DNA of 64,000 bases, from sequence record ON528725. One strand, 5' to 3'. Of this stretch, positions 1,546 through 64,000 are shown piece by piece. Under the pieces are notes generated by a model. That model was not told the DNA's origin. It did not search any database and was given only the letters and a program-made list of their open reading frames with translations. Origin of the DNA: Shigella phage ESh15. Every line of letters starts with the position of its first letter. Within the stretch, counting starts at the first letter, position 1. The position numbers and the translations under genes were made by a program.

Positions 1546-1599
1546 ATTTTTCCACTTACTAAAGAAATCATTATACTCTAATCCATCCTTGGATGTAAA

Positions 1600-2217
1600 C
1601 TACTTAACGAAATTAATTTCTACCGGATGAACAACAGGTTGAGCAGTGATATATTGAGTAATTGCTTTCATGACTAGAGCTTCAGAACCAGGATTTTTCT
1701 CAACGAATTCACGTGCTTGGTTATGAGCTTCAAGTTCACTTAGTAAACCGCTTCGTTGGCATCCACGGTCTTGAGTACCCTGTTCAGATAAAAAGACGAC
1801 GATGTATTTTTCGTCATCATCATACGGTTTAGACGGTTGAGCAAATGTTCCTTTACTTCCGAAAGGAGAGTTATGCCGCCACATATCACCGTGAGGAGTT
1901 TCAACCTTCGTGTATTCATGCGGTCCATTTTTCTTAGTTTCTTTCCATGGAACTTCATGGACCTTAGGGTTAGGACATTCAATAAAATGCTCATCTAAAT
2001 CGGTAGAGAATATTAAAGTAAAACAATTACTGAATTTACCAGCACCTGCCTGATAAATTTTACCTTCAGAAGTTCTAATTTCACAAACTGAGCCGGCATC
2101 AGTAACTTCTAAAACTTCAAAAGGCTCGATAAGGTCATATGAGAACATGTTTTTAAGGCGTGGAGTAATATCCCCATTTTTAAAATTCATTTTATAAAAA
2201 GTATTAACTTTAAACAT
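1600..2217 (-). CDS. hypothetical protein (205 aa)
   Basis: Track ORF; RBS GAGGAAA directly upstream of ATG at 2217, preceded by a GGGAGC-UUCG-GCUCCC hairpin. Confidence 0.5.
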   Translation of the reverse strand: MFKVNTFYKMNFKNGDITPRLKNMFSYDLIEPFEVLEVTDAGSVCEIRTSEGKIYQAGAGKFSNCFTLIFSTDLDEHFIECPNPKVHEVPWKETKKNGPHEYTKVETPHGDMWRHNSPFGSKGTFAQPSKPYDDDEKYIVVFLSEQGTQDRGCQRSGLLSELEAHNQAREFVEKNPGSEALVMKAITQYITAQPVVHPVEINFVK

Positions 2218-2252: not shown

Positions 2253-2618
2253 TTAGATATCAAATTCATTAAGAACTACATCAAAGATTGCTTCGAGATG
2301 TTCAGGTTTAGCTCGGTTGCTCAGGATATGACGAATCCAAGTTTTAACCAGAAGTTTACGATTATCACCATTCCAGCAAGGATGAGTACCTAAATCACGC
2401 TGACGGAAATCATCATCTAATGCAATTTTAAAATTTGAACCTTCCATCGTGATTGAAACCGTGATACCATTTTCAAATCGCATATAAACGTAATTAGGAG
2501 TCATGCACTGTTCGATTTCACAAACTGTACCGTTTTTGTGTTTCCATAAGCAAATAACTTCAGAAGAACCAGCGATACCGTTAGAAACATATTTACGTTC
2601 GAAGTTGATGTAGTTCAT
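2253..2618 (-). CDS. hypothetical protein (121 aa)
   Basis: Track ORF with own early promoter-like element; shares a C..CMTP motif with the next ORF upstream. Confidence 0.45.
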   Translation of the reverse strand: MNYINFERKYVSNGIAGSSEVICLWKHKNGTVCEIEQCMTPNYVYMRFENGITVSITMEGSNFKIALDDDFRQRDLGTHPCWNGDNRKLLVKTWIRHILSNRAKPEHLEAIFDVVLNEFDI

Positions 2619-2659
2619 TTTATTCTCCAGATGTTTAAGTTGTTTGTTGGTACAGGTCT

Positions 2660-2688
2660 ATAATAACATAACCTGTACCAAAGTAAAC
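2660..2688 (-). promoter_or_regulatory. early promoter within a 10-bp inverted repeat (PeSL-like)
   Basis: TGGTACAGGT at 2648-2657 and ACCTGTACCA at 2671-2680 flank the -10; gtaaac at 2683-2688. Confidence 0.45.
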
Positions 2689-2692
2689 TGTT

Positions 2693-3061
2693 TTATGCAA
2701 CTTTAATCCAATTGTCTAAATTTAAAACACCTTTGGCTTTCATTTTTTCGATCAGGTTATCTGCTGTAATGCGTCCATTTTGATACCATGTAACATCTTC
2801 AGAGTAACCAGTTTCTTCGTCAACATATGTTTCTGAACGAATTTTACCGGTAATAATAGTTTTTAATTCGTATGTGTCACCTGTGAAAAAGTTTGCTAAC
2901 ACAATTTTCCAAGAGAAATCATCAGAAGGACCTTCAGGGGTCATACAACTTACGATCTCAAATTGCTCTTTGTATAACATCCACTGGAATTCTTTAATTT
3001 CGATAGCTTTATAACCGTCGTGGTCTTTACATTTGATGTATGAGTTCAGATTGATTTTCAT
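2693..3061 (-). CDS. hypothetical protein (122 aa)
   Basis: Track ORF with own early promoter-like element at 3104-3132; CMTP motif. Confidence 0.45.
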   Translation of the reverse strand: MKINLNSYIKCKDHDGYKAIEIKEFQWMLYKEQFEIVSCMTPEGPSDDFSWKIVLANFFTGDTYELKTIITGKIRSETYVDEETGYSEDVTWYQNGRITADNLIEKMKAKGVLNLDNWIKVA

Positions 3062-8936: not shown

Positions 8937-9217
8937 TTTTCCTCTTTTAAACCACTACGATAATAACATAACATAGACTTCTGGTCATGTACATATCTTT
9001 TTACGTCGTTTAACCAGATACGAAATTCTTGAGAGTCTTCAAATGGCATTCCAACCCATGGATTACCATCAATAACCTTTACTTGCCATTTCTGGTTATA
9101 TTCAACAATAGATTCAGGCCATGGCGGATGTAAAGTTTCTTTAGGGCTTAAGGGCACATCCTGGGCACATCCAGCCAAAATGCCAATAGATAATACAACT
9201 GCGGTTAATTTAATCAT
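8927..9217 (-). CDS. outer-membrane lipoprotein, probable o-spanin
   Basis: Signal peptide with lipobox LAGC, paired Cys near C-terminus; follows an N-terminal-TM coiled-coil protein (T4 pseT.2/pseT.3 arrangement). Confidence 0.6.
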   Translation of the reverse strand: MIKLTAVVLSIGILAGCAQDVPLSPKETLHPPWPESIVEYNQKWQVKVIDGNPWVGMPFEDSQEFRIWLNDVKRYVHDQKSMLCYYRSGLKEEKCQ

Positions 9218-9570
9218 TCTGAGAGCTTCCTGAGGTCTTCTGCAAAGGAATCAAAGGACCTGTTGATTTGTTTTTCGACCAATCCTGGCTTACTTGCCAC
9301 CACGTTCTTCTTCTTCGAATCCTGACGGAGCTTTTCATTTTCGGCCTTAAGTTGGTCAACTAAAACACGGTTCTTATAAGTCATTTCTTCGATTGACTGA
9401 TATTGAACTTTGAAGTCGTCTAATACTTTAGCATTGTTTTTAGCAGTCTCTTTAACAGAAGCCAATTCAGTATTCAACGAATCAACTTTGTTGTTTAAGA
9501 CAACTATTGTTACAGTAGAAACTAGAGCAAAAGCTGCTACTATAGCGTAAATCGGATTTACTTTAAGCAT
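9214..9570 (-). CDS. type-II inner-membrane coiled-coil protein, probable i-spanin
   Basis: N-terminal TM (IYAIVAAFALVSTVTIVVL) then charged helical region; stop overlaps lipoprotein start. Confidence 0.6.
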   Translation of the reverse strand: MLKVNPIYAIVAAFALVSTVTIVVLNNKVDSLNTELASVKETAKNNAKVLDDFKVQYQSIEEMTYKNRVLVDQLKAENEKLRQDSKKKNVVASKPGLVEKQINRSFDSFAEDLRKLSE

Positions 9571-10058
9571 GTTTTAATAATCTCAATGATTTCATCTCGG
9601 GACAATCCATTGATAAGAACGGTTTTCAAACCATCACACTGGATTTTGTACGATTCAAACAATACACACAACTCTTCTGCTGTATGATATGGACTTGAGA
9701 TTCCGAGGCGGTTGAATTTGTCGGTAAGAGGGTCACAAATAATGTAGAATTTTATACCTGCGATATGTACGTTGGGTTGACTAATATTAATGAACACATT
9801 AGCATCATATTTAGTCAAATTGTTTTGAAGAAATTCTACCATAGCATTAACTGCTTCTGGCATCGCTTCGCGTTTCTCTTCAGCATATCGGGTTGAATAT
9901 TCCTTTTGCTTTAACTTCTTTTTAGCATTTTTCGCTAGAGTAGTACGAAGGTCCGTAAGATAACCAACTGGACGGCCTTTCTTAAAGACCTGGATTCCAT
10001 CTGTAGAATCACCAAATGCTGCCACAACCATATCGTTAGTAATCAATTGCATATTCAT
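9558..10058 (-). CDS. alc: Alc (host transcription shutoff on cytosine DNA)
   Basis: Start placed at internal ATG 10058 with RBS AGGAGA (166 aa); resembles recalled T4 Alc; position between pseT.x and rnlA. Confidence 0.7.
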   Translation of the reverse strand: MNMQLITNDMVVAAFGDSTDGIQVFKKGRPVGYLTDLRTTLAKNAKKKLKQKEYSTRYAEEKREAMPEAVNAMVEFLQNNLTKYDANVFINISQPNVHIAGIKFYIICDPLTDKFNRLGISSPYHTAEELCVLFESYKIQCDGLKTVLINGLSRDEIIEIIKTCLK

Positions 10059-10088
10059 AATTTTCTCCTCGTGTTGTTGACAAAAGCC

Positions 10089-10118
10089 ATAGTAACACCA
10101 TCCTTGGTGTTTGTAAAC
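10089..10118 (-). promoter_or_regulatory. early promoter upstream of alc with ACACCA-tcc-TTGGTGT palindrome in spacer
   Basis: Plus-strand atagta at 10089-10094 and gtaaac at 10113-10118; predicted start falls upstream of the alc ATG at 10058. Confidence 0.5.
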
Positions 10119-10120
10119 CA

Positions 10121-11254
<1,134 letters not shown>

Positions 11255-11270
11255 TCAGTTAGTTTTTTTT

Positions 11271-11300
11271 AATTGTACCACAATCCTTGTGGTATGTAAA
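11271..11300 (-). promoter_or_regulatory. early promoter upstream of rnlA with TACCACAA-tcc-TTGTGGTA palindrome in spacer
   Basis: Plus-strand attgta at 11271-11276 and gtaaac at 11295-11300. Confidence 0.45.
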
Positions 11301-17405: not shown

Positions 17406-17795
17406 CTACTTTTTAAAAGTTTTTTGCAAAAGTTCGATGATTTCGTCGACGTTAGTTTCATCTACTACACAATGAATTTTTGTTACACCTAAAACTATGC
17501 CTTCGTTAACCGGTTGAGGCTTTTCTAAAGTTACCTCGTTGAAGTATTTGAATTCTTCAGGGTAAAGTTCAAAATATGTCTCTTCCGGACCACCAGCAGA
17601 ACATTCTGTGCCATCTTCCATGGTTACACATACTACGTTTAGGCATCCATCATAATCATGTTCCATTCCATTTACAACAAAACTTGGACCATGCTTCTCA
17701 AGCAAATCTAGCATAAAGCCGTTATTGTACGGGGCCTCTTCGATGAATTCATCTTTAAATAAAGGGTTAAAGATATAAGTTTTTCCGATTTCCAT
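17406..17795 (-). CDS. hypothetical protein (129 aa), paralogue of next ORF
   Basis: Shares M(E/K)IGKTYI.NP, LHGPSFVV, YFELY..EFK.F blocks with 17825-18187. Confidence 0.5.
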   Translation of the reverse strand: MEIGKTYIFNPLFKDEFIEEAPYNNGFMLDLLEKHGPSFVVNGMEHDYDGCLNVVCVTMEDGTECSAGGPEETYFELYPEEFKYFNEVTLEKPQPVNEGIVLGVTKIHCVVDETNVDEIIELLQKTFKK

Positions 17796-17824
17796 TTTGA
17801 TTTCCTCGTTTGTTGATTAATAAA

Positions 17825-18187
17825 TTATTTTATTCCAAAAATTTCTTTAATTTCTGCAATCACATCTCGAGCATTTTCTACAGTAACTTCAAAGATGAGT
17901 GACTGTTTAGAAATAGACTCTGGAGATACCTCGATGAAGTGTTTGAACTCATCATCGTAAAGCTCAAAATATGAACCTGGAGGACCATCAAAACCAAATT
18001 CAGTACCGTCTTGCATAGTTACGCTGGTTACGCATTTATCATCATCGTACTCAGTGTTCATGTCCTTTACAACAAAACTAGGACCATGGAGCTCAATCAA
18101 ATCCAACATATCAGCATTTTGTGGGCATTCATTGGCAAATGCAGCTTTACATTCTGGATTGATGATGTACGTTTTTCCAATTTTCAT
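17825..18187 (-). CDS. hypothetical protein (120 aa), paralogue of previous ORF
   Basis: Tandem duplicate, each copy with its own promoter cassette. Confidence 0.5.
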   Translation of the reverse strand: MKIGKTYIINPECKAAFANECPQNADMLDLIELHGPSFVVKDMNTEYDDDKCVTSVTMQDGTEFGFDGPPGSYFELYDDEFKHFIEVSPESISKQSLIFEVTVENARDVIAEIKEIFGIK

Positions 18188-21584: not shown

Positions 21585-24500
21585 ATGGCCGACATCAAAC
21601 GTAAGTTCAGAGCCGAAGACGGTCTGGACGCCGGTGGCGACAAGATTGTTAACGTAGCATTAGCCGACCGTACAGTAGGTACTGATGGCGTAAACGTTGA
21701 CTTCCTTGTACAAGAAAACACCGTTCAAGTATATGATTCTACGCGTGGATATAACAAAGGATTTGTTGTTCTTTATGACAACCGTTTATATCAAGCAATA
21801 AATGATATCGTGTCTCCTTCCGGGGCATTTAACCTTTTACAATGGCGTGCAGTTCGTACTGATGCACAATGGATAACTGTAGCTTCTGGGGCTTATCAAC
21901 TTTCTTCAGGTGAATCGATTTCGGTTAACACTGGTGCCGGCAATGATATGGTTTTCACGTTGCCAAATACTCCGGTTGATGGTGATACTGTTGTTTTGGC
22001 TGATATTGGTGGACGAACCGGGACAGTTAAAGTACAGATTAACGCGTCTGTACAGAGTATTTTAAACTTTAGAGGTGAACAAGTTCGTACAGTTTTAATG
22101 ACGCGCCCACGTTCACAACTATTGTTTGTGTTTAGTAATCGTTTGTGGCAGATGTATATTACCGATTATGGTAAAGAATCAATCACTGTTACACCTGCGA
22201 CACCATATCAAGCACAAGCAAATGATTTTATCGTTCGTCGTTTTACTAGTGCAGCACCAATCAACATTACACTTCCACGTAATGCTAACAATGGTGATAT
22301 AATCAGCCTAGTCGATTTAGATAGATTAAACCCACTGTATCATACATTTGTTAAAACATTTGATGATACAACGTCTATTGGTGAAGTCGGGACTCATATT
22401 GCCGAAGGCAGAAATGACTCTGACGCGTTTTTTGTTTTTGATGCTGCAAATAGTTTATGGCGTATATGGGAAGGAGACCAGAAATCGCGTCTTCGTATTA
22501 TCCGTGCGGATTCAAATATTCGACCAAATGAAGAAGTTCTTATTTTTGGCACAAATAACGCTACACACGGAACTATTAATCTTACGCTGCCTTCCGGAAT
22601 TTTGAGCGGTGACACTGTTAAAATTTCAATGAACTACATGCGTAAAGGCCAAACGGTAAAAATTAAAGCTGCCGAAGGTGATACAATTGCTTCTTCTGTC
22701 GCATTACTTCAGTTCCCTAAACGTTCTGAATATCCACCTGATGCTCAATGGGTCTCTGTTACTGAACTAGAATTCAATGGTACTACTTCATATGTTCCTG
22801 TATTAGAATTAGCGTATATCGAAGACACCGTTGCTGGTACACGCTATTGGGTTGTTCAACAAAACGTCCCAACTGTAGAACGTGTCGATGCTGGAACTGA
22901 TACAACTAGAGCTCGTGTAGGTGTTATTGCTCTTGCAACTCAGGCACAGGCAAATGTTGATTTTGAAAATTCTCCGGCTAAAGAAGTTGCTATTACTCCG
23001 GAAACATTGGCAAATCGTACAGCAACTGAAGCTAGACGTGGTATCGCTAAAATTGCTACAACAGCACAAGTTAACCAGAATTCCACAGCATCATTTGTGG
23101 ACGATACTATTGTTACGCCTAAAAAACTAAATGAGCGTACAGCAACTGAAACTCGTCGTGGTCTTGCTGAAATTGCTACTCAGGTTGAAACCGATGCTGG
23201 TCTTGATGACACAACGATTATTACACCTAAGAAATTACAGGCACGTCAGGGTTCTGAAACACTATCTGGTATAGTTAAATATGTATCAACTACTTCTGCT
23301 ACTCCTGCTGAAACTCGTGGGGCCGCAGGCACTAATGTTTATAATAAAACCGTAAATAATTTAACTATTTCTCCTAAAGCCCTTGACCAATATAAAGCAA
23401 CTTATGCTCAACAAGGTGCAGTAATTTTAGCTGTTGATAGTGAAGTAATTGCTGGTCAATCTCAAGCAGGTTATTCTCATGCTGTAGTAACTCCTGAAAC
23501 ACTACATAAGAAAACTTCTACTGATGGACGTATTGGTTTAATTGAAATTGCTACGCAAGCAGAAACTAATGCTGGGACTGATTATACACGTGCAGTAACG
23601 CCTAAGACGTTAAATGATAGGAAAGCTACGGAAGGATTATCCGGCATAGCCGAAATTGCTACGCAAGTTGAATTTGATACTGGAACTGATGATACTCGTA
23701 TCTCGACTCCACTGAAAATTAAAACTCATTTTGATTCTTCTGACCGTACCAGTGTTAATTCTGATTCCGGACTTATTGAAGAAGGAACCTTGTGGAACCA
23801 TTATACTCTTGATATTTCTAAAGCAAATGAAACACAACGTGGTACACTTCGCGTAGCGACCCAGGCAGAATCTAATGCAGGAACTTTAGATGATGTTCTT
23901 ATTACTCCTAAAAAGCTTTTAGGGACTAAGTCCACTGAAACGTCTGAAGGTGTAATTAAGGTTGCTACTCAGGCTGAAACTGTAACAGGAACTTCTACTA
24001 ATACTGCTGTATCTCCTAAGAATTTAAAATGGATTGTCCAGAATGAACCAACATGGGCTGCTACCACAGCAATTCGTGGATTCGTTAAAACTTCATCCGG
24101 TTCTATTACATTTGTTGGTAATGATACAGTCGGTTCAACGCAACCTTTAGAATCATATGAAAAAAATAGCTATGCTATATCTCCATATGAATTAAACCGT
24201 GTACTTGCTAACTATTTGCCATTAAAAGCAAAAGCTGCTGACGCAAATTTATTAGATGGTCTAGATTCATCTCAGTTCATTCGTAGGGATATTGCACAGA
24301 CGGTTAATGGTTCACTAACCTTAACCCAACAAACGAATCTGAGTGCCCCTCTTGTATCATCTAGTACTGCTACGTTTGGTGGTTCAGTTTCGGCAAATAG
24401 TACATTAACTATTTCTAATACCGGAACAGCTACTCGTCTGATTTTTGAGAAAGGACCTCAAACTGGAACTAACCCAGCGCAGACGATGAGTATCAGAGTT

Positions 24501-39718: not shown

Positions 39719-41932
39719 TTATTTGGCCGCTTCTACGGCCTTCATGAATTTAACGATTTGAGCGACCTGTTCTTTAGAAAGAGTACCACGTCGTCCCATG
39801 TATTCTGACACAATATGATAATTGGTTTCGAATTCAATAACCATTTTATCATCATTATCGTAAGCATTATCTTTAAGCTTATCGAAAATTTTAGCACACA
39901 ATTCTAACTTCCTGTTAAGGTCTCTGTTATCAGCACCTGCGAATCGATTCCATCCCCAACGATTATTTACTGTTGAGAGTTTTGCAAAATCTTTACTGAT
40001 TTCTTTGTTTTTAGAGCTAAAATACTTACTAAGGAAGTTAAGCTCTTCATTACGAGTAATATGATTCAAATAAGGTTGAGCTCTACGACTTGGTGATACA
40101 TACTCATCATAATCCACTTTATCGATTAGCGTAATATAGTCATTAATTGATTTTTCGAACAAGCATTCTACTTCACCAAGTTTACGAACTTTCTTAGCAA
40201 TCTGTGGACGAACTACAGTGAACTCTTTAATACCTGACAAATCAGCAATACGAGTCAAGAAATTGGAGTCATAGTTCAACCAACCTTTATCTGCATCAAG
40301 ACATTCAGCATTAGAACGATTACGAACTATAGCATAACCTTGGATTTCATCTGCTTCACTCGCCGGAATAAAGAGGTCTTCTGATACCCAAACATTGTTT
40401 TCATTCTTAAAGAATCGATGAGCACTTGGCGATTTAGGACGAGGCTCATTAGTCCGTTTCCTGACTTCAATCCATGGCTTAACGATTTGTAAAAGCTCTG
40501 AAGTCTTGTACATGTTAATGTTGTCGCCATCAAAGATAACTTTAAGGCGTTCCAGAAGTTTCATTGCATCTTCGTCTGTAGGGTCAACGAATAGTACGCT
40601 TTTACCAAAACCGCGTGGAACTTTACCAGTTAATTTAACCTCGTCTTTAGACATTTCAATTGAATTAAGAGCTCGCATTAATGGAACGCGTCCCTTAACG
40701 TCGTCAATAACAATTTCAACATTTTTAATGTTAATGCCAATCAGACTGTTAATTGAAATGGTTGCCGTTGAGCTACCGCTTTCACGAATACGACGAAGAC
40801 GAGGGGATTCAACGATATCGTATACGACACCAAGATTACACCACTCAGGCCCCATTTTAAAACGTTTATACAACTCAGAATAAGTTAGTTGTTCTTTAGA
40901 GTATTTCAGTGATTCAATATTAGACCCGGCCTTTTCCATGTATTTACGAGCGGTATAGCCAAGAGAATCAATTTCACGGAACACATGACGTGGGTATTTA
41001 CAATCAATCCATTTCTTAGAATCTTCAGCGAACAATTTAGCATCGATTTCTGCAACGCGTTTATGGATATTTGCTACTGTACGTTTATCAAATGACAATG
41101 CTTCACGAGACGGAGCTACATCTAGTTCACCCATAGGGAATTTAATATAAGCTGTAGTGCATCGTGTCATCATCCATGTTTGTTCTTTAATAACACTTCC
41201 GATTGGATATACAATACCGCCATAAACAGCCATGATATTACCACGTTCACCCCATGGAGCTTCCTTGGCCAAATATACATCGTCAAATTCAGGGAAGTAT
41301 TTAATATCTTTAACACCACGAACTTCTGCAATATCACCTAGAGGACGCATAACATATGCAATTTCGGATGCGAACTTTTCAAAATCTTCTGGGTTAACCG
41401 GTACAACTACTTCTACACCTGTACGGTCGTCAGGACCCATCTTATCTACAAAGGTCGGCTTAATTTGTGGACCTGTGTCATCTTGGTAGATTACGTAACC
41501 ACGAACTTCACCGTTGTGATAAGACGTAAGGTTAAACGTATCGGTATATGCTAGCGGAGCTTTAGAACCGAGTCCGAATCCACCAATGAAATCGTTACTA
41601 GATGTTTTAGTTGAAGCAAAATATGAGTTATAGATTCCTGGCTCTTCGTCATTACCTCTAATGGTGAAATCGCTCATACCAGGACCAAAGTCTCGAACTA
41701 CAAAGCGTGGGTCTAAACGACCTGGAGCCTGAACAATAAACTTATCAGTGCAACCATTAAGAATTTGTCCATCAATACAGTTTGTGATTAATTCACGTAC
41801 ACAAGCCAATTCTTTGTTTGTATAAAGGTCATTAGACAAAATCTTATAAACTTTGCTATTGCCTTGAATAGTGAATGCTGTGCTCTTACCGCCTGAACCA
41901 ATAATCGTTTCTTTAGACGTTTCAATAATCAT
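39719..41932 (-). CDS. rIIA: rIIA
   Basis: 737 aa; N-terminal GHKL-type ATPase-like region; size and position as T4 rIIA. Confidence 0.93.
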   Translation of the reverse strand: MIIETSKETIIGSGGKSTAFTIQGNSKVYKILSNDLYTNKELACVRELITNCIDGQILNGCTDKFIVQAPGRLDPRFVVRDFGPGMSDFTIRGNDEEPGIYNSYFASTKTSSNDFIGGFGLGSKAPLAYTDTFNLTSYHNGEVRGYVIYQDDTGPQIKPTFVDKMGPDDRTGVEVVVPVNPEDFEKFASEIAYVMRPLGDIAEVRGVKDIKYFPEFDDVYLAKEAPWGERGNIMAVYGGIVYPIGSVIKEQTWMMTRCTTAYIKFPMGELDVAPSREALSFDKRTVANIHKRVAEIDAKLFAEDSKKWIDCKYPRHVFREIDSLGYTARKYMEKAGSNIESLKYSKEQLTYSELYKRFKMGPEWCNLGVVYDIVESPRLRRIRESGSSTATISINSLIGINIKNVEIVIDDVKGRVPLMRALNSIEMSKDEVKLTGKVPRGFGKSVLFVDPTDEDAMKLLERLKVIFDGDNINMYKTSELLQIVKPWIEVRKRTNEPRPKSPSAHRFFKNENNVWVSEDLFIPASEADEIQGYAIVRNRSNAECLDADKGWLNYDSNFLTRIADLSGIKEFTVVRPQIAKKVRKLGEVECLFEKSINDYITLIDKVDYDEYVSPSRRAQPYLNHITRNEELNFLSKYFSSKNKEISKDFAKLSTVNNRWGWNRFAGADNRDLNRKLELCAKIFDKLKDNAYDNDDKMVIEFETNYHIVSEYMGRRGTLSKEQVAQIVKFMKAVEAAK

Positions 41933-41944
41933 ATTTTTCTCTCA

Positions 41945-42145
41945 TCACAAGTTACGTTTAAAAATTTCTGCTACTTCAAGAAGTTCTTCTTTAGTAGCTG
42001 TATCGGTTTGTATTTTATATCGAATTTCTTTAAAGCGTTCTTTAAAGGACTCTGCTGACTCGATATCAAAAAATCTTTGGATAAGCCGGAATTCCCGGAG
42101 TACTGCTTTATCAAAAAGTTCCAAGTCCACGTTATATGTTCTCAT
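41945..42145 (-). CDS. hypothetical protein (66 aa, rIIA.1 position)
   Basis: Track ORF. Confidence 0.45.
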   Translation of the reverse strand: MRTYNVDLELFDKAVLREFRLIQRFFDIESAESFKERFKEIRYKIQTDTATKEELLEVAEIFKRNL

Positions 42146-42165: not shown

Positions 42166-42226
42166 CCTAGGGCACTATTACTAAAGACCATATAATCTAT
42201 CATCTTATGTGTAATAGTGCCTCAGG
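42166..42226 (-). other. 16-bp near-perfect inverted repeat stem-loop with 29-nt loop
   Basis: CCTAGGGCACTATTAC ... GTAATAGTGCCTCAGG between the glycosyltransferase gene and the rIIA.1-position ORF. Confidence 0.5.
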
Positions 42227-42237
42227 CTATTCAGGAT

Positions 42238-43338
42238 TTACGCTGTGAAGATTTTATCCCACATCGCAACAACTGCATCTCGGTTATACTTCTTCCATAC
42301 GGCTTCAGCACGTTTAACTCGAGCTTCGTATGTGTCAGTGAATTCTAATACAGCTTTTGTGTAAAGCGCAACTACTTCTTTCTTAGGAGTAGAGGAATCA
42401 ATTTCTACACGCACAGTATCTGGGTCATATTCGAATGTCGCGTGCGGATAATCCTTAAAAACTAACTGAATCACAGGTACACCTTTAGAGATGGCTTCAA
42501 TAGAACTATTCTCTACCGTACCCGTGTCAGGACACGTATTGATAAGTGCTTTAGCTGTTTTAAGACGTTCCATAATTTCACTGTGTGGAGCATCAATAAT
42601 AACAGGATACTTGGCCGGTGGTGCCCATTTGCTTGGACAGTATCCTGCGCCATTTTCGCCTAATGCTTTAATCGCTTCAAGAGCAACATCAGTACGACGC
42701 ATCTTAGTGTCATAACGTTGAGCACTAATAATCAAATCAGTTGCTGGAAGAACTTCAGGTTTCTCATTCAAACAAATAACCGGATAATCTTCGGCTTCAA
42801 ACAACGGATTTGCTCGCCAATAATCATAATCAATTTTGTCAGTCAGTCCTGAAGTCATATAACAATATTTGCGTTCAAATTCACGGAAGGCTTTAGTAGG
42901 AGCATAACTCTTACCACCGTTCTTATGAATTTGAATAGTCTGGTCCCAAATTTGAACAATGCCACGAGATACCGGTTCAAATGGTGTCGCCATAAAATTC
43001 TTATGAACTTTAGAGAGACCTGCGTCTTTAATTGCCTGAACGGTTAGTTTGGTCGGTTCCATTGTAACAACGAAATCGTACTCATTGATGCCGGCTAGTT
43101 CAACAATCTTACGAGCCATAGTATAACTCATACCTAGACTGAATTTAGTCAGATGACCAACAGGATGATGATTAACCTTCCAGTCACCAAACGTGTCATT
43201 ATCAAAACCGATATAATCAATATCAGCACCGATGGACACAAGATATTTCAATACATTTAAATGTACTGCTTCAAGACCACCTTGTACACGTTCAGGATTA
43301 AATGGGACTGCACGAGATGGGATAAACATAACTTTCAT
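42238..43338 (-). CDS. GT-B fold glycosyltransferase (GT4-like), candidate DNA hydroxymethylcytosine sugar transferase
   Basis: 366 aa; C-terminal TGTVENSSIEAISKGVPVIQ fits the GT4 E-x7-E motif; occupies the slot between rIIA.1 and gene 39. Confidence 0.6.
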   Translation of the reverse strand: MKVMFIPSRAVPFNPERVQGGLEAVHLNVLKYLVSIGADIDYIGFDNDTFGDWKVNHHPVGHLTKFSLGMSYTMARKIVELAGINEYDFVVTMEPTKLTVQAIKDAGLSKVHKNFMATPFEPVSRGIVQIWDQTIQIHKNGGKSYAPTKAFREFERKYCYMTSGLTDKIDYDYWRANPLFEAEDYPVICLNEKPEVLPATDLIISAQRYDTKMRRTDVALEAIKALGENGAGYCPSKWAPPAKYPVIIDAPHSEIMERLKTAKALINTCPDTGTVENSSIEAISKGVPVIQLVFKDYPHATFEYDPDTVRVEIDSSTPKKEVVALYTKAVLEFTDTYEARVKRAEAVWKKYNRDAVVAMWDKIFTA

Positions 43339-43354
43339 AATTAAGCCTTATTAA

Positions 43355-43381
43355 AATTAAAATGAAGCTCCCGAAGGAGCT
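43355..43381 (-). terminator. hairpin plus U-rich tract at the 3' end of gene 39
   Basis: AAGCUCC-UUCG-GGAGCUU hairpin overlapping the gene 39 stop, followed by a U-rich stretch. Confidence 0.4.
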
Positions 43382-45198
43382 TAGGACATCCATTCTTTAC
43401 GAAGTTCTGAATCATCACCCATCAACATTTCAAAGAGTTCTTTCCAATTTTCAGGAAGTTTAACTACGTCGTACACAGGGTTCTGAATCATTTCACGATA
43501 TTCTGACTTTTCAAGGGAGCCTAATCCCTTGATGTATCGAATACTATGCTTAGGCAGCGTATCTTTAGCTTCTTCGTACTCAGCTACAGTATAAAACCAT
43601 TTTTGAGTTTTGCCGATTTGTGCAATAATTACAGGTGTTTTAACAAAGCGAATACGTCCTTGTTCAAACAATTCAGGCCAATTACTAAAGAAAGCAAGCA
43701 AAGCCGGATAGATACTTCCAAGACCGTCATGATCGGCATCGGTCATAATTGCAATATTACGATAGTTCGTATTCTCTGCTTTTTCACCAAGAATAAGACC
43801 TGTGATAGCACAGATATCAAAGAGCTCTTTGTTCTTCATCATATCAGCATATGACATACCCCAGCTATTCATCACCTTACCACGTAATGGGAATCCGCCA
43901 TGTAGTTCACGGTCACGAACATCAATGAGATATCCAATTGCCGAATCACCTTCTGTTAAGAACAATGTCGTATCTGCGTCTTTACCGCATTGGTTAGCTT
44001 TAATATGCTTATGAACCTTAGCTTTAGTGGCCTTTTTAGCTGCTTTAGTTTCTGCAGCCTTTTCTGCTGCCAATTTACGAGCTAATGCTGCTTCAACAAT
44101 AGGCATAATCAAGGCTTCGTTTTTAAGAAGTGCCTGAGCAATTTTCTTAGCATCTAATTGGATATGATTACGAATATCACCATATGTTGACGTTAAACGT
44201 TCTTTAGTCTGAGAATCAAAACGCATGTTACTCATGTCTCTAATAAACATCAACATTGTGAGGCATTCTTTAACACGAGCTTTAGTGACTTCAATACCCT
44301 TATATTTCTTTTTAATACCTGGCAAAAGATGTTCGCAGATATCGTCCATTACACATTCAACATGATGTCCACCATTTTTAGTATGGATGTTATTCACATA
44401 AGTTAAATGACGGAAGCCATCTGGTGATGTTGTGAATGCTATAGAGACTTTATCATTTTCTTGAATGATGTTATCTTCACCAAATTGTTTAGCAAATCGT
44501 TTAAAATTACCATCAACCTTTTTACCATTAAATGTGAACTTGATATCAGGATAAACGACTGCCAATGTTTGAAGTCGGTCTAAAGTAATATCTAAATAAA
44601 TTTGAGATAAATTATGCTCTTCAAATGAAGAGAAATCAGGAGTGAAGATTACTTTAGTGCCTTTACCTTTAGATTTCTTAGAAGACCATGATTTGTTTTC
44701 CATTCCGTTTGAACAGTTAACAGTGATTTCATTTTCGCCATCTGACGTGATGCCTGTAAACAACGTAGAGAAGATATTAGTTAAACTACTCCCGACGCCG
44801 TTCATACCACCAGTCTTGCGTTCAGAGTCATCACCAAAGTTACCACCGGCCTTTGGAATAGTCCAGGCTGCTACAGGCCCAGGAATTTGTTCACCTGTTT
44901 GGTCGGTAACTAAACCTTGAGGAATACCACGTCCGTTATCTTCCACAGAAACTTGATTATTTTTAATTTGCACATCAATTTTATTTGCAAACTTAAATGA
45001 TGTACGAATAGCTTCATCAACCGAGTTGTCAATAATCTCATCGATTAATTTAACCAGACCAGGAACATATTCAACTTGTTGATATTTACCAAACAAAAAA
45101 CGCTCATGTGCTTCTTTGGCCGAAGAACCAATATACATACCACTACGTTTCTTAATATGTTCTACATCCGACAATACCTTAATTTCATTTTTAATCAT
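43381..45198 (-). CDS. 39: DNA topoisomerase II large subunit, unsplit gp39 (39 plus 60 equivalent)
   Basis: 605 aa; GyrB-like ATPase and TOPRIM; C-terminal part corresponds to T4 gp60 without interruption. Confidence 0.92.
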   Translation of the reverse strand: MIKNEIKVLSDVEHIKKRSGMYIGSSAKEAHERFLFGKYQQVEYVPGLVKLIDEIIDNSVDEAIRTSFKFANKIDVQIKNNQVSVEDNGRGIPQGLVTDQTGEQIPGPVAAWTIPKAGGNFGDDSERKTGGMNGVGSSLTNIFSTLFTGITSDGENEITVNCSNGMENKSWSSKKSKGKGTKVIFTPDFSSFEEHNLSQIYLDITLDRLQTLAVVYPDIKFTFNGKKVDGNFKRFAKQFGEDNIIQENDKVSIAFTTSPDGFRHLTYVNNIHTKNGGHHVECVMDDICEHLLPGIKKKYKGIEVTKARVKECLTMLMFIRDMSNMRFDSQTKERLTSTYGDIRNHIQLDAKKIAQALLKNEALIMPIVEAALARKLAAEKAAETKAAKKATKAKVHKHIKANQCGKDADTTLFLTEGDSAIGYLIDVRDRELHGGFPLRGKVMNSWGMSYADMMKNKELFDICAITGLILGEKAENTNYRNIAIMTDADHDGLGSIYPALLAFFSNWPELFEQGRIRFVKTPVIIAQIGKTQKWFYTVAEYEEAKDTLPKHSIRYIKGLGSLEKSEYREMIQNPVYDVVKLPENWKELFEMLMGDDSELRKEWMS

Positions 45199-45242
45199 GT
45201 TGTCTCCTCGTTATGAAGGTATTCTATCATCCGAAATCTAAA

Positions 45243-45261
45243 GCAAAAAGGGCCGGAGCCC
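45243..45261 (-). terminator. intrinsic terminator upstream of gene 39
   Basis: GGGC-UCCG-GCCC hairpin followed by UUUUUGCUU. Confidence 0.5.
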
Positions 45262-54578: not shown

Positions 54579-55100
54579 TTAGTAACCATTATCCTGACGT
54601 TCAAAGTTGTGTTGGTTTTTCAAGTAATACAGTTTAAAGATTTCTTCAGCCGAAAGACCTAGACCTTGGAACATATTCAGAACAAAGTGGAGGATATCAA
54701 TCATCTCGAATTTAATTTCAAGCTGGTCTTCAGGAGACAGTTCATCGATACGTCGATTTCGATATTCAGCATGTTGTGCTTTCCAAGGCTTCCATACACT
54801 GCTGGCGGCTTTTTCACCATTGCTCATACCACCAAGTGAAGTCAGCAGTTCACGGAATTCATCATCAATATAATCTTTCTGATTACGCAGCCAATCAACA
54901 ACATCACCAGCAGTAGCCAATTCATCAGGATGTTTGTTATGTTCAGGCTTGTCATTTGCCAGACGAACCTGTAAAGATTTCTGCATATCAAGCATAACTT
55001 GCAGTGGGTCTTTATCTTCGTGAATCAGAGCATTAAAATAAGCTTCTTCTGCTTTATCAACACCAGAAATAAGTTGTGAACATTCGTTAAAGTGTGCCAT
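54579..55100 (-). CDS. 56: dCTPase/dUTPase gp56
   Basis: Start placed at MAHFNEC (about 172 aa); close to recalled T4 gp56. Confidence 0.9.
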   Translation of the reverse strand: MAHFNECSQLISGVDKAEEAYFNALIHEDKDPLQVMLDMQKSLQVRLANDKPEHNKHPDELATAGDVVDWLRNQKDYIDDEFRELLTSLGGMSNGEKAASSVWKPWKAQHAEYRNRRIDELSPEDQLEIKFEMIDILHFVLNMFQGLGLSAEEIFKLYYLKNQHNFERQDNGY

Positions 55101-55189
55101 TATTTTTCCTTTCAATTCAGTAATAAGTGAGTTAATTCTAACATTAATTTTATAAAGCGTAATAAATAATAGGTAACTAAGGAGATATT

Positions 55190-62967: not shown

Positions 62968-63516
62968 TTAACGAGCCCATTTGATGATTTCTGTAATCAA
63001 ACCATTACGTTCGCTTGCATTAAATCCTATAACTTTGTTAGCACCATCATGATTAAGTAATTGATACGTTTGGATTTTGTTATGAATTGCAAACTCTTCA
63101 AAATGTGAAATGACTGTATTAAAACCGAATGAAGACAAAGTAATAAGGTCGTCTTCAAAACTTTCAGTCATTTCATTACGTGTTAAAATAATTGTGAACA
63201 CATCATGGTTTTGGCAAAGACGAACATAGTCCTGTTCATAAACGTCAAGAATCGAGTCCGCATCTTGTCGAATACGTCCATAAACCCAGTTACTAATATA
63301 TCCACGGTCTAACAGATAAATCTTAGTAGGGTCTAAATAATTCAACATCGTTTCGAAACAGCCAACTTCATTTCGAGACTTAACATCGAAACGTCCATCA
63401 ACTGTTCGTTTAGGGAAATCAATCTTCACATATCTTTCACTAATTTCCATTATGTCATTAATGAAAGTTGTTTTACCGGCATTATCCGGGCCATCTACTA
63501 AAATAATTTTAGCCAT
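62968..63516 (-). CDS. P-loop nucleotide kinase, thymidylate-kinase-like fold
   Basis: 182 aa; Walker A VDGPDNAGKTT and LLDRGYISNWVYG fitting the D-R-x-x-x-S-x-x-x-Y element of dTMP/dNMP kinases. Confidence 0.55.
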   Translation of the reverse strand: MAKIILVDGPDNAGKTTFINDIMEISERYVKIDFPKRTVDGRFDVKSRNEVGCFETMLNYLDPTKIYLLDRGYISNWVYGRIRQDADSILDVYEQDYVRLCQNHDVFTIILTRNEMTESFEDDLITLSSFGFNTVISHFEEFAIHNKIQTYQLLNHDGANKVIGFNASERNGLITEIIKWAR

Positions 63517-63517
63517 T

Positions 63518-63982
63518 TTATTCCTCGATTACGACATCTTCGTATTTAGGTATATTATACGGTGAAGAAATTAAAGCATTAAAGTAGATGAACTCACCAA
63601 GACCTGGATGGAATACTTCTTCAGGATTTTCGAAATATTGAATTTTCGGACGTCCTTTAAGAATTTGATAGTACTCAGTTTTAGTTGGTTTAAAAATTCG
63701 AATCAGTGCTTCTTCAGGATACTTATTTCTGTCGAAGCTATTATTTGGATCGGTTATATAAAGCGGTTGACCTAATTGAATTGCACATTCAACCACTTGT
63801 TCAAAACGATAACATGGGTCACTAATTCGAAATGGATGAAAAATACCATCTACATGAATAGGAGCCAAATCACCTACAAGACGCTGCATGATGGAAGGAC
63901 GTATAACTTTCTGCGTTACGATAATCTTATTACCATCTGCACCTGCGTTAACCAGCACTTCTTTTTGACGTTCATTCAACAC
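63518..63982 (-). CDS. hypothetical protein (154 aa)
   Basis: Track ORF upstream of the kinase-like gene. Confidence 0.4.
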   Translation of the reverse strand: MLNERQKEVLVNAGADGNKIIVTQKVIRPSIMQRLVGDLAPIHVDGIFHPFRISDPCYRFEQVVECAIQLGQPLYITDPNNSFDRNKYPEEALIRIFKPTKTEYYQILKGRPKIQYFENPEEVFHPGLGEFIYFNALISSPYNIPKYEDVVIEE

Positions 63983-64000
63983 AGTAGTTTGAAGTGAACG

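Follow-up and report, generated by a model that had tools for sequence, protein, structure and literature searches.

The 64,000-nucleotide stretch of Shigella phage ESh15 analysed here (record ON528725; hereafter the window) is a piece of an RB69-like T-even phage of the genus Mosigvirus, and the gene of interest encodes a protein of 366 amino acids between an unsplit topoisomerase gene 39 and rIIA.1. In our judgement this protein is quite probably a GT-B DNA glycosyltransferase dependent on uridine diphosphate (UDP)-arabinofuranose, which most likely adds the second (β) arabinose in the cytosine hypermodification of Mosigvirus. The gene itself is the already known RB69 ORF003c/gp3 gene of this genus: its product was proposed as an arabinosyltransferase in 2018 and reassigned in 2025-26, and a near-identical relative has been crystallised with UDP. 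Nothing new follows for the window, since the literature already covers this gene together with its position, proposed role and structure. The identity of the gene, the fold of its product and its near-identity to a UDP-bound structure, together with the absence of the T4 glucosyltransferases, the remainder of the pathway and the phyletic pattern, come from the present analysis; the base chemistry and the in vitro activity of the Acinetobacter paralogues are taken from the literature.

Identity and fold of the 366-residue protein

The protein is homologous over its full length to RB69 ORF003c/gp3 (NP_861693.1), with which it shares 363 of 366 residues (99.2%; differences E16D, N85H and T327I), and to the ‘phage HY126 glycosyltransferase’, the single pair of entries returned by a sequence profile search of the PDB (9IQZ, apo, and 9IR0, UDP; E 2.6e-195; description and release date of 2025-07-16 from the Foldseek entry titles). 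A Pfam scan of the protein yielded zero matches, even at E ≤ 1, and PHROG 8302, which matches residues 1-366 (E 1.6e-222), carries the description ‘unknown function’; the family assignment is therefore drawn from the structure and from close homologues. When 1.84 billion representative proteins were searched exhaustively with a profile, only 12 representatives reached E ≤ 0.001 and, because the relatives so added are few and distant, the gp3 family is not traceable by sequence to any particular bacterial ancestor.

An AlphaFold2 model derived from an alignment of 13 sequences (mean predicted local distance difference test score 90.8, predicted template modelling score 0.87) displays a GT-B fold, with two Rossmann-like β/α/β domains, an inter-domain cleft and a C-terminal helix that crosses back, and is nearest to retaining GT4-type enzymes. 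The experimental HY126 structures, 98% identical in sequence, superpose on it with template modelling (TM) scores of 0.96-0.97, and the deposition of that enzyme as a UDP complex suggests, through the close sequence match, that the window protein likewise binds a UDP donor. The family-invariant residues R208, R214, E281 and G20 are unchanged in the window protein, and H299, E303 and R340 are further invariant positions of the family.

Less straightforward is the relationship to family GT4. The region homologous to the GT4 EX7E motif is TGTVENSSIEAISKGVPVIQ, in which the glutamates E276 and E281 (stretch TGTVENSSIEA) are spaced as E-x4-E. E281 is invariant in the gp3 family, the position of the first EX7E glutamate is occupied by G273 throughout, and a literal E-x7-E occurs only in the two most distant relatives (P0015 and P0016). 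The window protein thus has no EX7E motif, and it has no match to the Pfam family Glycos_transf_1 at the gathering threshold; a few of the 13 aligned members show weak matches to Glycos_transf_1, Glyco_transf_4 or GT4-conflict. An earlier note on this DNA, made from the sequence alone, had called the protein a GT4-type GT-B enzyme with an E-x7-E motif in this region. The GT-B fold is borne out by the model and by the HY126 structures and the motif was a misreading, so that ‘GT4-type’ holds by fold neighbourhood only, given that neither a family model nor the motif is matched.

The modified base and the step assigned to gp3

Arabinose was found in RB69 DNA by Thomas et al. (2018), who named the modified base arabinosyl-hydroxymethylcytosine (arabinosyl-hmC) and proposed ORF003c as the arabinosyltransferase from hidden Markov model and HHpred evidence (PMC6024577). 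Using tandem mass spectrometry (MS/MS) and nuclear magnetic resonance (NMR), Lee et al. (2026) have since described RB69 DNA as containing mono- and di-arabinosylated 5-hydroxycytosine (5hoC), the di-form being β-D-Araf-3-α-D-Araf-5-hydroxy-2'-deoxycytidine, where Araf is arabinofuranose (PMC13326640). The base fragment has m/z 128.05, not 142.06, and NMR places the arabinose on C5 through an oxygen, as reported by two independent groups (PMC13326640; PMC13390438). In the independent study, which concerned Mosigvirus NP, 5-ara-dC and 5-ara-ara-dC were present at a ratio of 1:4 (PMC13390438), and Bas46 and Bas47 are cited elsewhere as doubly arabinosylated (PMC12923530). The pathway replaces every cytosine of Mosigvirus DNA with mono- and di-arabinosylated 5-hydroxycytosine, a modification on which the sensitivity to restriction enzymes, CRISPR-Cas, DNA glycosylases and type IV systems depends and which complicates the sequencing and engineering of therapeutic phages.

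The genes of this pathway are present partly in the window and partly in its 98%-identical relative LF82-1. The window holds a P-loop nucleotide kinase equivalent to RB69 gp45, whose role is taken from Table 1 of PMC13326640, and the C-terminal half of the putative first arabinosyltransferase, the equivalent of RB69 gp46:47, which is 98% identical to residues 140-299 of a 299-residue LF82-1 protein. It also encodes a dCTP pyrophosphatase of the gp56 type, an enzyme that acts at an upstream step of the modification, providing dCMP while excluding dCTP. The cluster is cut off by the end of the window, and its remainder is seen only in LF82-1, where the cluster continues with a thymidylate-synthase homologue, a peptidase-like protein and a small HAD phosphatase, followed by a 561-residue bifunctional enzyme and an arabinose-5-phosphate isomerase, up to DNA polymerase. 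The thymidylate-synthase homologue corresponds to the RB69 ‘gene 42’ homologue, identified as a flavin-associated 5-hydroxy-dCMP synthase (PMC13326640). In LF82-1 (17417-18133, minus strand, of the LF82-1 stretch, just past the point where the window ends) it is 25% identical to T4 gp42 and has RSQN where ThyA and gp42 have RS(V/N)D, the published D169N signature of 5-hydroxy-dCMP synthases. The names dCMP hydroxymethylase and thymidylate synthase are still attached to this homologue in many GenBank records.

Neither the window nor the rest of LF82-1 yielded a homologue of the T4 a-gt or b-gt genes (best tblastn E 0.05, over a short stretch). Between genes 47 and 55, where T4 has a-gt, LF82-1 contains small open reading frames only, and the b-gt slot between uvsX and gene 42, which holds segA and b-gt in T4, is occupied by the P-loop kinase and the first arabinosyltransferase. 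The earlier note had pointed to a proposed RB69 arabinosyl-hmC transferase at the position of the 366-residue protein and had suspected a sugar other than glucose on hmC. Such a proposal does exist in the literature (PMC6024577) and the sugar is indeed arabinose (PMC13326640; PMC13390438); the base is 5-hydroxycytosine, and that proposal is outdated on this point and probably also on the step, which would be the addition of the second sugar. The comparisons that it had suggested recover ORF003c as an orthologue and, as above, no a-gt or b-gt; its search for gene 42 finds a homologue in LF82-1, which bears the signature of a different synthase.

In the scheme that we favour, the flavin-dependent thymidylate-synthase homologue would make 5-hydroxy-dCMP, replacing dCMP in the phage DNA, and UDP-D-Araf would be produced by the phage-encoded arabinose-5-phosphate isomerase, bifunctional kinase/uridylyltransferase and HAD phosphatase. 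The first transferase, encoded beside the synthase, would attach α-D-Araf to O5 of the base, and the 366-residue enzyme would most likely add β-D-Araf to O3 of this first arabinose on DNA, giving the di-arabinosyl form, which is the dominant one in Mosigvirus DNA. This extra sugar may broaden protection from DNA-targeting host defences; deletion of a gene called ‘Aat’, which may be the present gene, is cited as sensitising Bas46 to a defence system (PMC13216743, citing Mahler 2025).

Support for the transfer step comes from Acinetobacter phage DLP3, in which gp76 and gp77, annotated as β-arabinosyltransferases 2 and 3, add a third arabinose to RB69 DNA in vitro with UDP-Araf as donor (PMC13326640). 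Their substrate is DNA with arabinose already in place; DNA containing 5hoC only gave no product (PMC13326640). From these data and the published assignment, the window protein most likely transfers Araf from UDP-Araf to arabinosylated 5hoC DNA, and the β-(1→3) bond between the two arabinoses is most likely its product.

The distribution of the two transferase families points in the same direction. The first transferase was found in 348 phage records that span 20 or more host genera and include Thanatos, a mono-pentosylated Shewanella phage. The gp3 family was found by tblastn in 211 phage records, at identities of at least 95% in Mosigvirus and of about 42% in Acinetobacter T4-like phages; the two families have no detectable sequence similarity to each other. 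The gp3 family is restricted to the di-arabinosyl Mosigvirus, with a single copy, and to the tri-arabinosyl Acinetobacter T4-like phages, with two tandem copies; copy number thus follows the number of sugars added after the first one, which is what chain extension would predict. In Acinetobacter phage DLP2 the two paralogues (DLP2_047 and DLP2_048, 57% identical) lie in tandem inside the cluster, after the kinase (9001-11296, plus strand, of the stretch examined), an arrangement which implies that the Mosigvirus copy has been relocated or was acquired separately. In the same phage, uvsX does not lie between the cluster and gene 40.

Several observations weigh against this assignment. In the literature, the role of gp3 as ‘β-arabinosyltransferase 2’ is proposed, not confirmed (PMC13326640), and direct activity of the RB69 or Mosigvirus gp3 itself is reported in no accessible paper. 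DLP3 gp76 and gp77 are each inactive alone and active only as a pair (PMC13326640), which means that gp3 on its own might depend on a partner. Few chemically characterised phages underlie the phyletic correlation, and one record labelled ‘Tegunavirus’ has a gp3-family tblastn match, Yersinia Tegunavirus otherwise appearing only in the search with the first transferase.

The stereochemistry of the reaction raises a further difficulty, since the closest fold neighbours of gp3 are retaining GT4-type enzymes, which act on α-configured donors, whereas the assigned product is β-linked. A retaining fold and a β product fit together only if the donor is β-configured or if the enzyme departs from the GT4 norm. 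The retaining-versus-inverting question is a detail and no challenge to the assignment. A more specific proposal, which we regard as tentative and on balance doubtful, is that the gp3 family has a GT4-like scaffold of the retaining type, from which the first EX7E glutamate has been lost, and makes a β-(1→3) Araf-Araf bond on a sugar attached to duplex DNA. Were this so and the natural donor α-configured, the reaction would be an inverting one on a GT4-like scaffold; were the enzyme retaining, the phage pathway would have to make UDP-β-D-Araf, by analogy with the ADP-β-heptose route, and the first transferase would have to be the inverting one. Either outcome is a mechanistic detail that is not stated in the accessible literature.

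The original proposal of Thomas et al. (2018), with hmC updated to 5hoC, would make the 366-residue protein the primary, base-proximal transferase, which places the first arabinose on the modified cytosine. The distribution described above renders this improbable: Thanatos, with its single pentose, and many other genera that carry the cluster lack a gp3 homologue, yet all of them keep the other transferase beside the synthase, and the number of gp3-family copies (0, 1 or 2) follows the number of extra arabinoses. The need of the DLP3 paralogues for an arabinosylated substrate is also at odds with a base-proximal role, and the current literature assigns the first transferase to gp46:47, beside the synthase (PMC13326640). 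Almost certainly wrong is the notion of a transferase that would build arabinosyl- or glucosyl-hydroxymethylcytosine within an hmC pathway like that of T4, even though it has the base name of the 2018 paper (PMC6024577) behind it and GenBank retains annotations of the kind ‘putative hmC-arabinosyltransferase’ (Bas47) or ‘dCMP hydroxymethylase’. It is already contradicted by the published MS/MS and NMR data, as well as by the divergence and D169N signature of the synthase homologue and the lack of any a-gt or b-gt match. The labels ‘hmC’, ‘dCMP hydroxymethylase’ and ‘hypothetical protein’ in these genomes are outdated, and a suitable label for the 366-residue gene would be putative second DNA arabinosyltransferase.

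An acceptor other than DNA (a host envelope glycan, a protein or a small molecule), with the location in a variable slot arising by chance, is very unlikely. It would accord with the nearest structural neighbours, which act on lipids, small molecules or glycans, with the location of the gene at a locus variable between phages, 20 kb away from the arabinosylation cluster, and with the protein not being basic (pI 6.3); the T4 α-glucosyltransferase, however, is equally acidic (pI 6.1). More telling against it are the Acinetobacter homologues, which are encoded inside the arabinosylation cluster and modify DNA in vitro, and the confinement of the family, which has few representatives in the exhaustive search, to arabinosylating T4-like phages.

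The gene 39-rIIA locus and its expression

The order of genes on the minus strand is gene 39, the 366-codon gene, rIIA.1, rIIA and rIIB (Table 1). More than 140 deposited Mosigvirus genomes match the segment 41900-45300 at 98% identity. For the glycosyltransferase and gene 39 reading frames, the earlier note was correct throughout in its coordinates, lengths and neighbours. It had also remarked on a single 605-residue gene 39 where T4 is split, which is accurate and describes the usual state in these phages.

Table 1. Positions of the genes and non-coding elements discussed, in window coordinates.
Feature	Position	Strand	Remarks
rIIA	39719-41932	-	
rIIA.1, downstream neighbour of the glycosyltransferase gene	41945..42145	-	Pfam T4_RIIA1, E 2.1e-30
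16-nt imperfect inverted repeat, 88% complementary, 29-nt spacer	42166..42226	.	In the 92-nt gap from the glycosyltransferase stop to the rIIA.1 start
366-aa GT-B glycosyltransferase; RB69 ORF003c/gp3 and HY126 orthologue; putative second (β) DNA arabinosyltransferase	42238..43338	-	
7-bp perfect GC-rich hairpin, UUCG-type (TTCG) loop, interrupted T-run, terminator-like	43365..43382	-	Predicted
Unsplit gene 39, topoisomerase II large subunit, 605 aa	43381..45198	-	Pfam and PHROG matches; colinear with T4 gp39 + gp60
MotA-box-type middle-promoter match, TGCTTTA, 12 nt, TAGAAT	45221..45245	-	Just upstream of gene 39; nearest candidate promoter
gp56-type dCTP pyrophosphatase	~54579-55115	-	Pfam dUTPase_2 at 29.4 bits (cut-off 22.9); syntenic annotation in relatives; predicted start
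182-aa P-loop nucleotide kinase, RB69 gp45 equivalent, arabinosyl-5hoC cluster	62968..63516	-	Open reading frame; ‘thymidylate kinase’ in relatives; weak Pfam P-loop matches
C-terminal 160 residues of the putative first (base-proximal) arabinosyltransferase, RB69 gp46:47 equivalent	63518..64000	-	Frame open to the window end

The gene 39 protein contains the Pfam domains HATPase_c, DNA_gyraseB, Toprim and TOPRIM_C and is 96% identical to RB69 gp39. Residues 1-473 of T4 gp39 align to its residues 1-474 (79% identity) and residues 27-159 of T4 gp60 to its residues 473-605 (88% identity), within one open reading frame that is free of the mobA/60.1 insertion and of the 50-nt bypass. Gene 39 is unsplit in RB69 and JS98 as well, and the GenBank notes on T4 and on RB69 treat the split in T4 as an insertion, which makes the unsplit gene the ordinary state in such phages.

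The interval between rIIA.1 and gene 39 is a variable locus, which holds 60, 60.1 and mobA in T4 and the glycosyltransferase gene in Mosigvirus. In JS98, which has the first transferase only, the interval consists of 588 bp of unannotated, unrelated sequence (2437-3024 of the stretch examined), and a search of this slot for a decayed glycosyltransferase remnant found none; an open frame of 111 codons is present there on the minus strand. In its base composition the glycosyltransferase gene shows no sign of a recent foreign origin, with a GC content of 0.38-0.42 across the gene versus 0.34-0.42 in the flanks.

A disrupted copy suspected in Shigella phage JK45 from a two-piece tblastn match was rejected, as an intact 366-codon gene is present. 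It is followed by an open reading frame of 136 codons whose last 130 residues are an exact copy of glycosyltransferase residues 237-366 (1594-2004, plus strand, of the stretch examined), a tandem partial duplication that sits between the glycosyltransferase gene and rIIA.1. The JK45 record is classed as Tequatrovirus, yet this region is Mosigvirus-like.

The start of the glycosyltransferase gene lies 42 nt past the stop codon of gene 39. A search of the space between the two genes for promoters of the sigma-70-like or MotA type gave no convincing candidate; sigma-70-like matches in the region number 8, against 12.7 in shuffled sequence. Matches of the MotA-box type (TGCTTNA, 11-13 nt, TANNNT) number 13 in the window, versus 3.8 expected from shuffles. 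As there is no promoter-like site between the genes and a MotA-box match lies upstream of gene 39, the glycosyltransferase gene is probably co-transcribed with gene 39. Judging from these promoter matches, the shared transcript would probably belong to the pre-replicative or middle period, and expression at that time suits a DNA-modifying enzyme. The hairpin at the end of gene 39 overlaps the stop codon of that gene, some 25 nt upstream of the glycosyltransferase start codon, and could be a partial terminator or an mRNA-stabilising structure; no T-run follows the inverted repeat on the other side of the glycosyltransferase gene. Other MotA-box-type matches include those at 63554-63578 and 23800-23825 (both minus strand); one of the 13 matches falls within the 3' end of the gene for the first transferase and thus upstream of the kinase gene.

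Comparison with known glycosyltransferases

Closest to the window protein is RB69 gp3, which is the same gene with the same neighbours (rIIA.1 and an unsplit gene 39) on the same strand; the three substitutions are conservative or peripheral, and no functional difference is expected. The HY126 glycosyltransferase differs by 7 substitutions in 364 residues, none of them at family-conserved positions. The DLP2 paralogues DLP2_047 and DLP2_048, which stand in here for DLP3 gp76 and gp77, are 41-43% identical to the window protein over the full length. The DLP3 proteins are encoded by tandem, in-cluster paralogues that together add the third arabinose, whereas Mosigvirus has one gene copy only, at a distance of about 20 kb from the cluster.

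At a greater distance, the bacterial GT4-type retaining GT-B enzymes BshA, PimA, MshA, WaaG and sucrose-phosphate synthase share 10-14% identity with the window protein, which differs from them in lacking a Glycos_transf_1 or Glyco_transf_4 match and in the replacement of the first EX7E glutamate by glycine. With the T4 DNA glucosyltransferases encoded by a-gt (GT72) and b-gt (GT63), there is no detectable sequence similarity, and their genes occupy genomic positions other than that of gp3. The two systems also differ in chemistry: the T4 enzymes transfer glucose to the hydroxymethyl group of hmC, whereas gp3, as assigned, would transfer D-arabinofuranose to a sugar hydroxyl on arabinosylated 5-hydroxycytosine.

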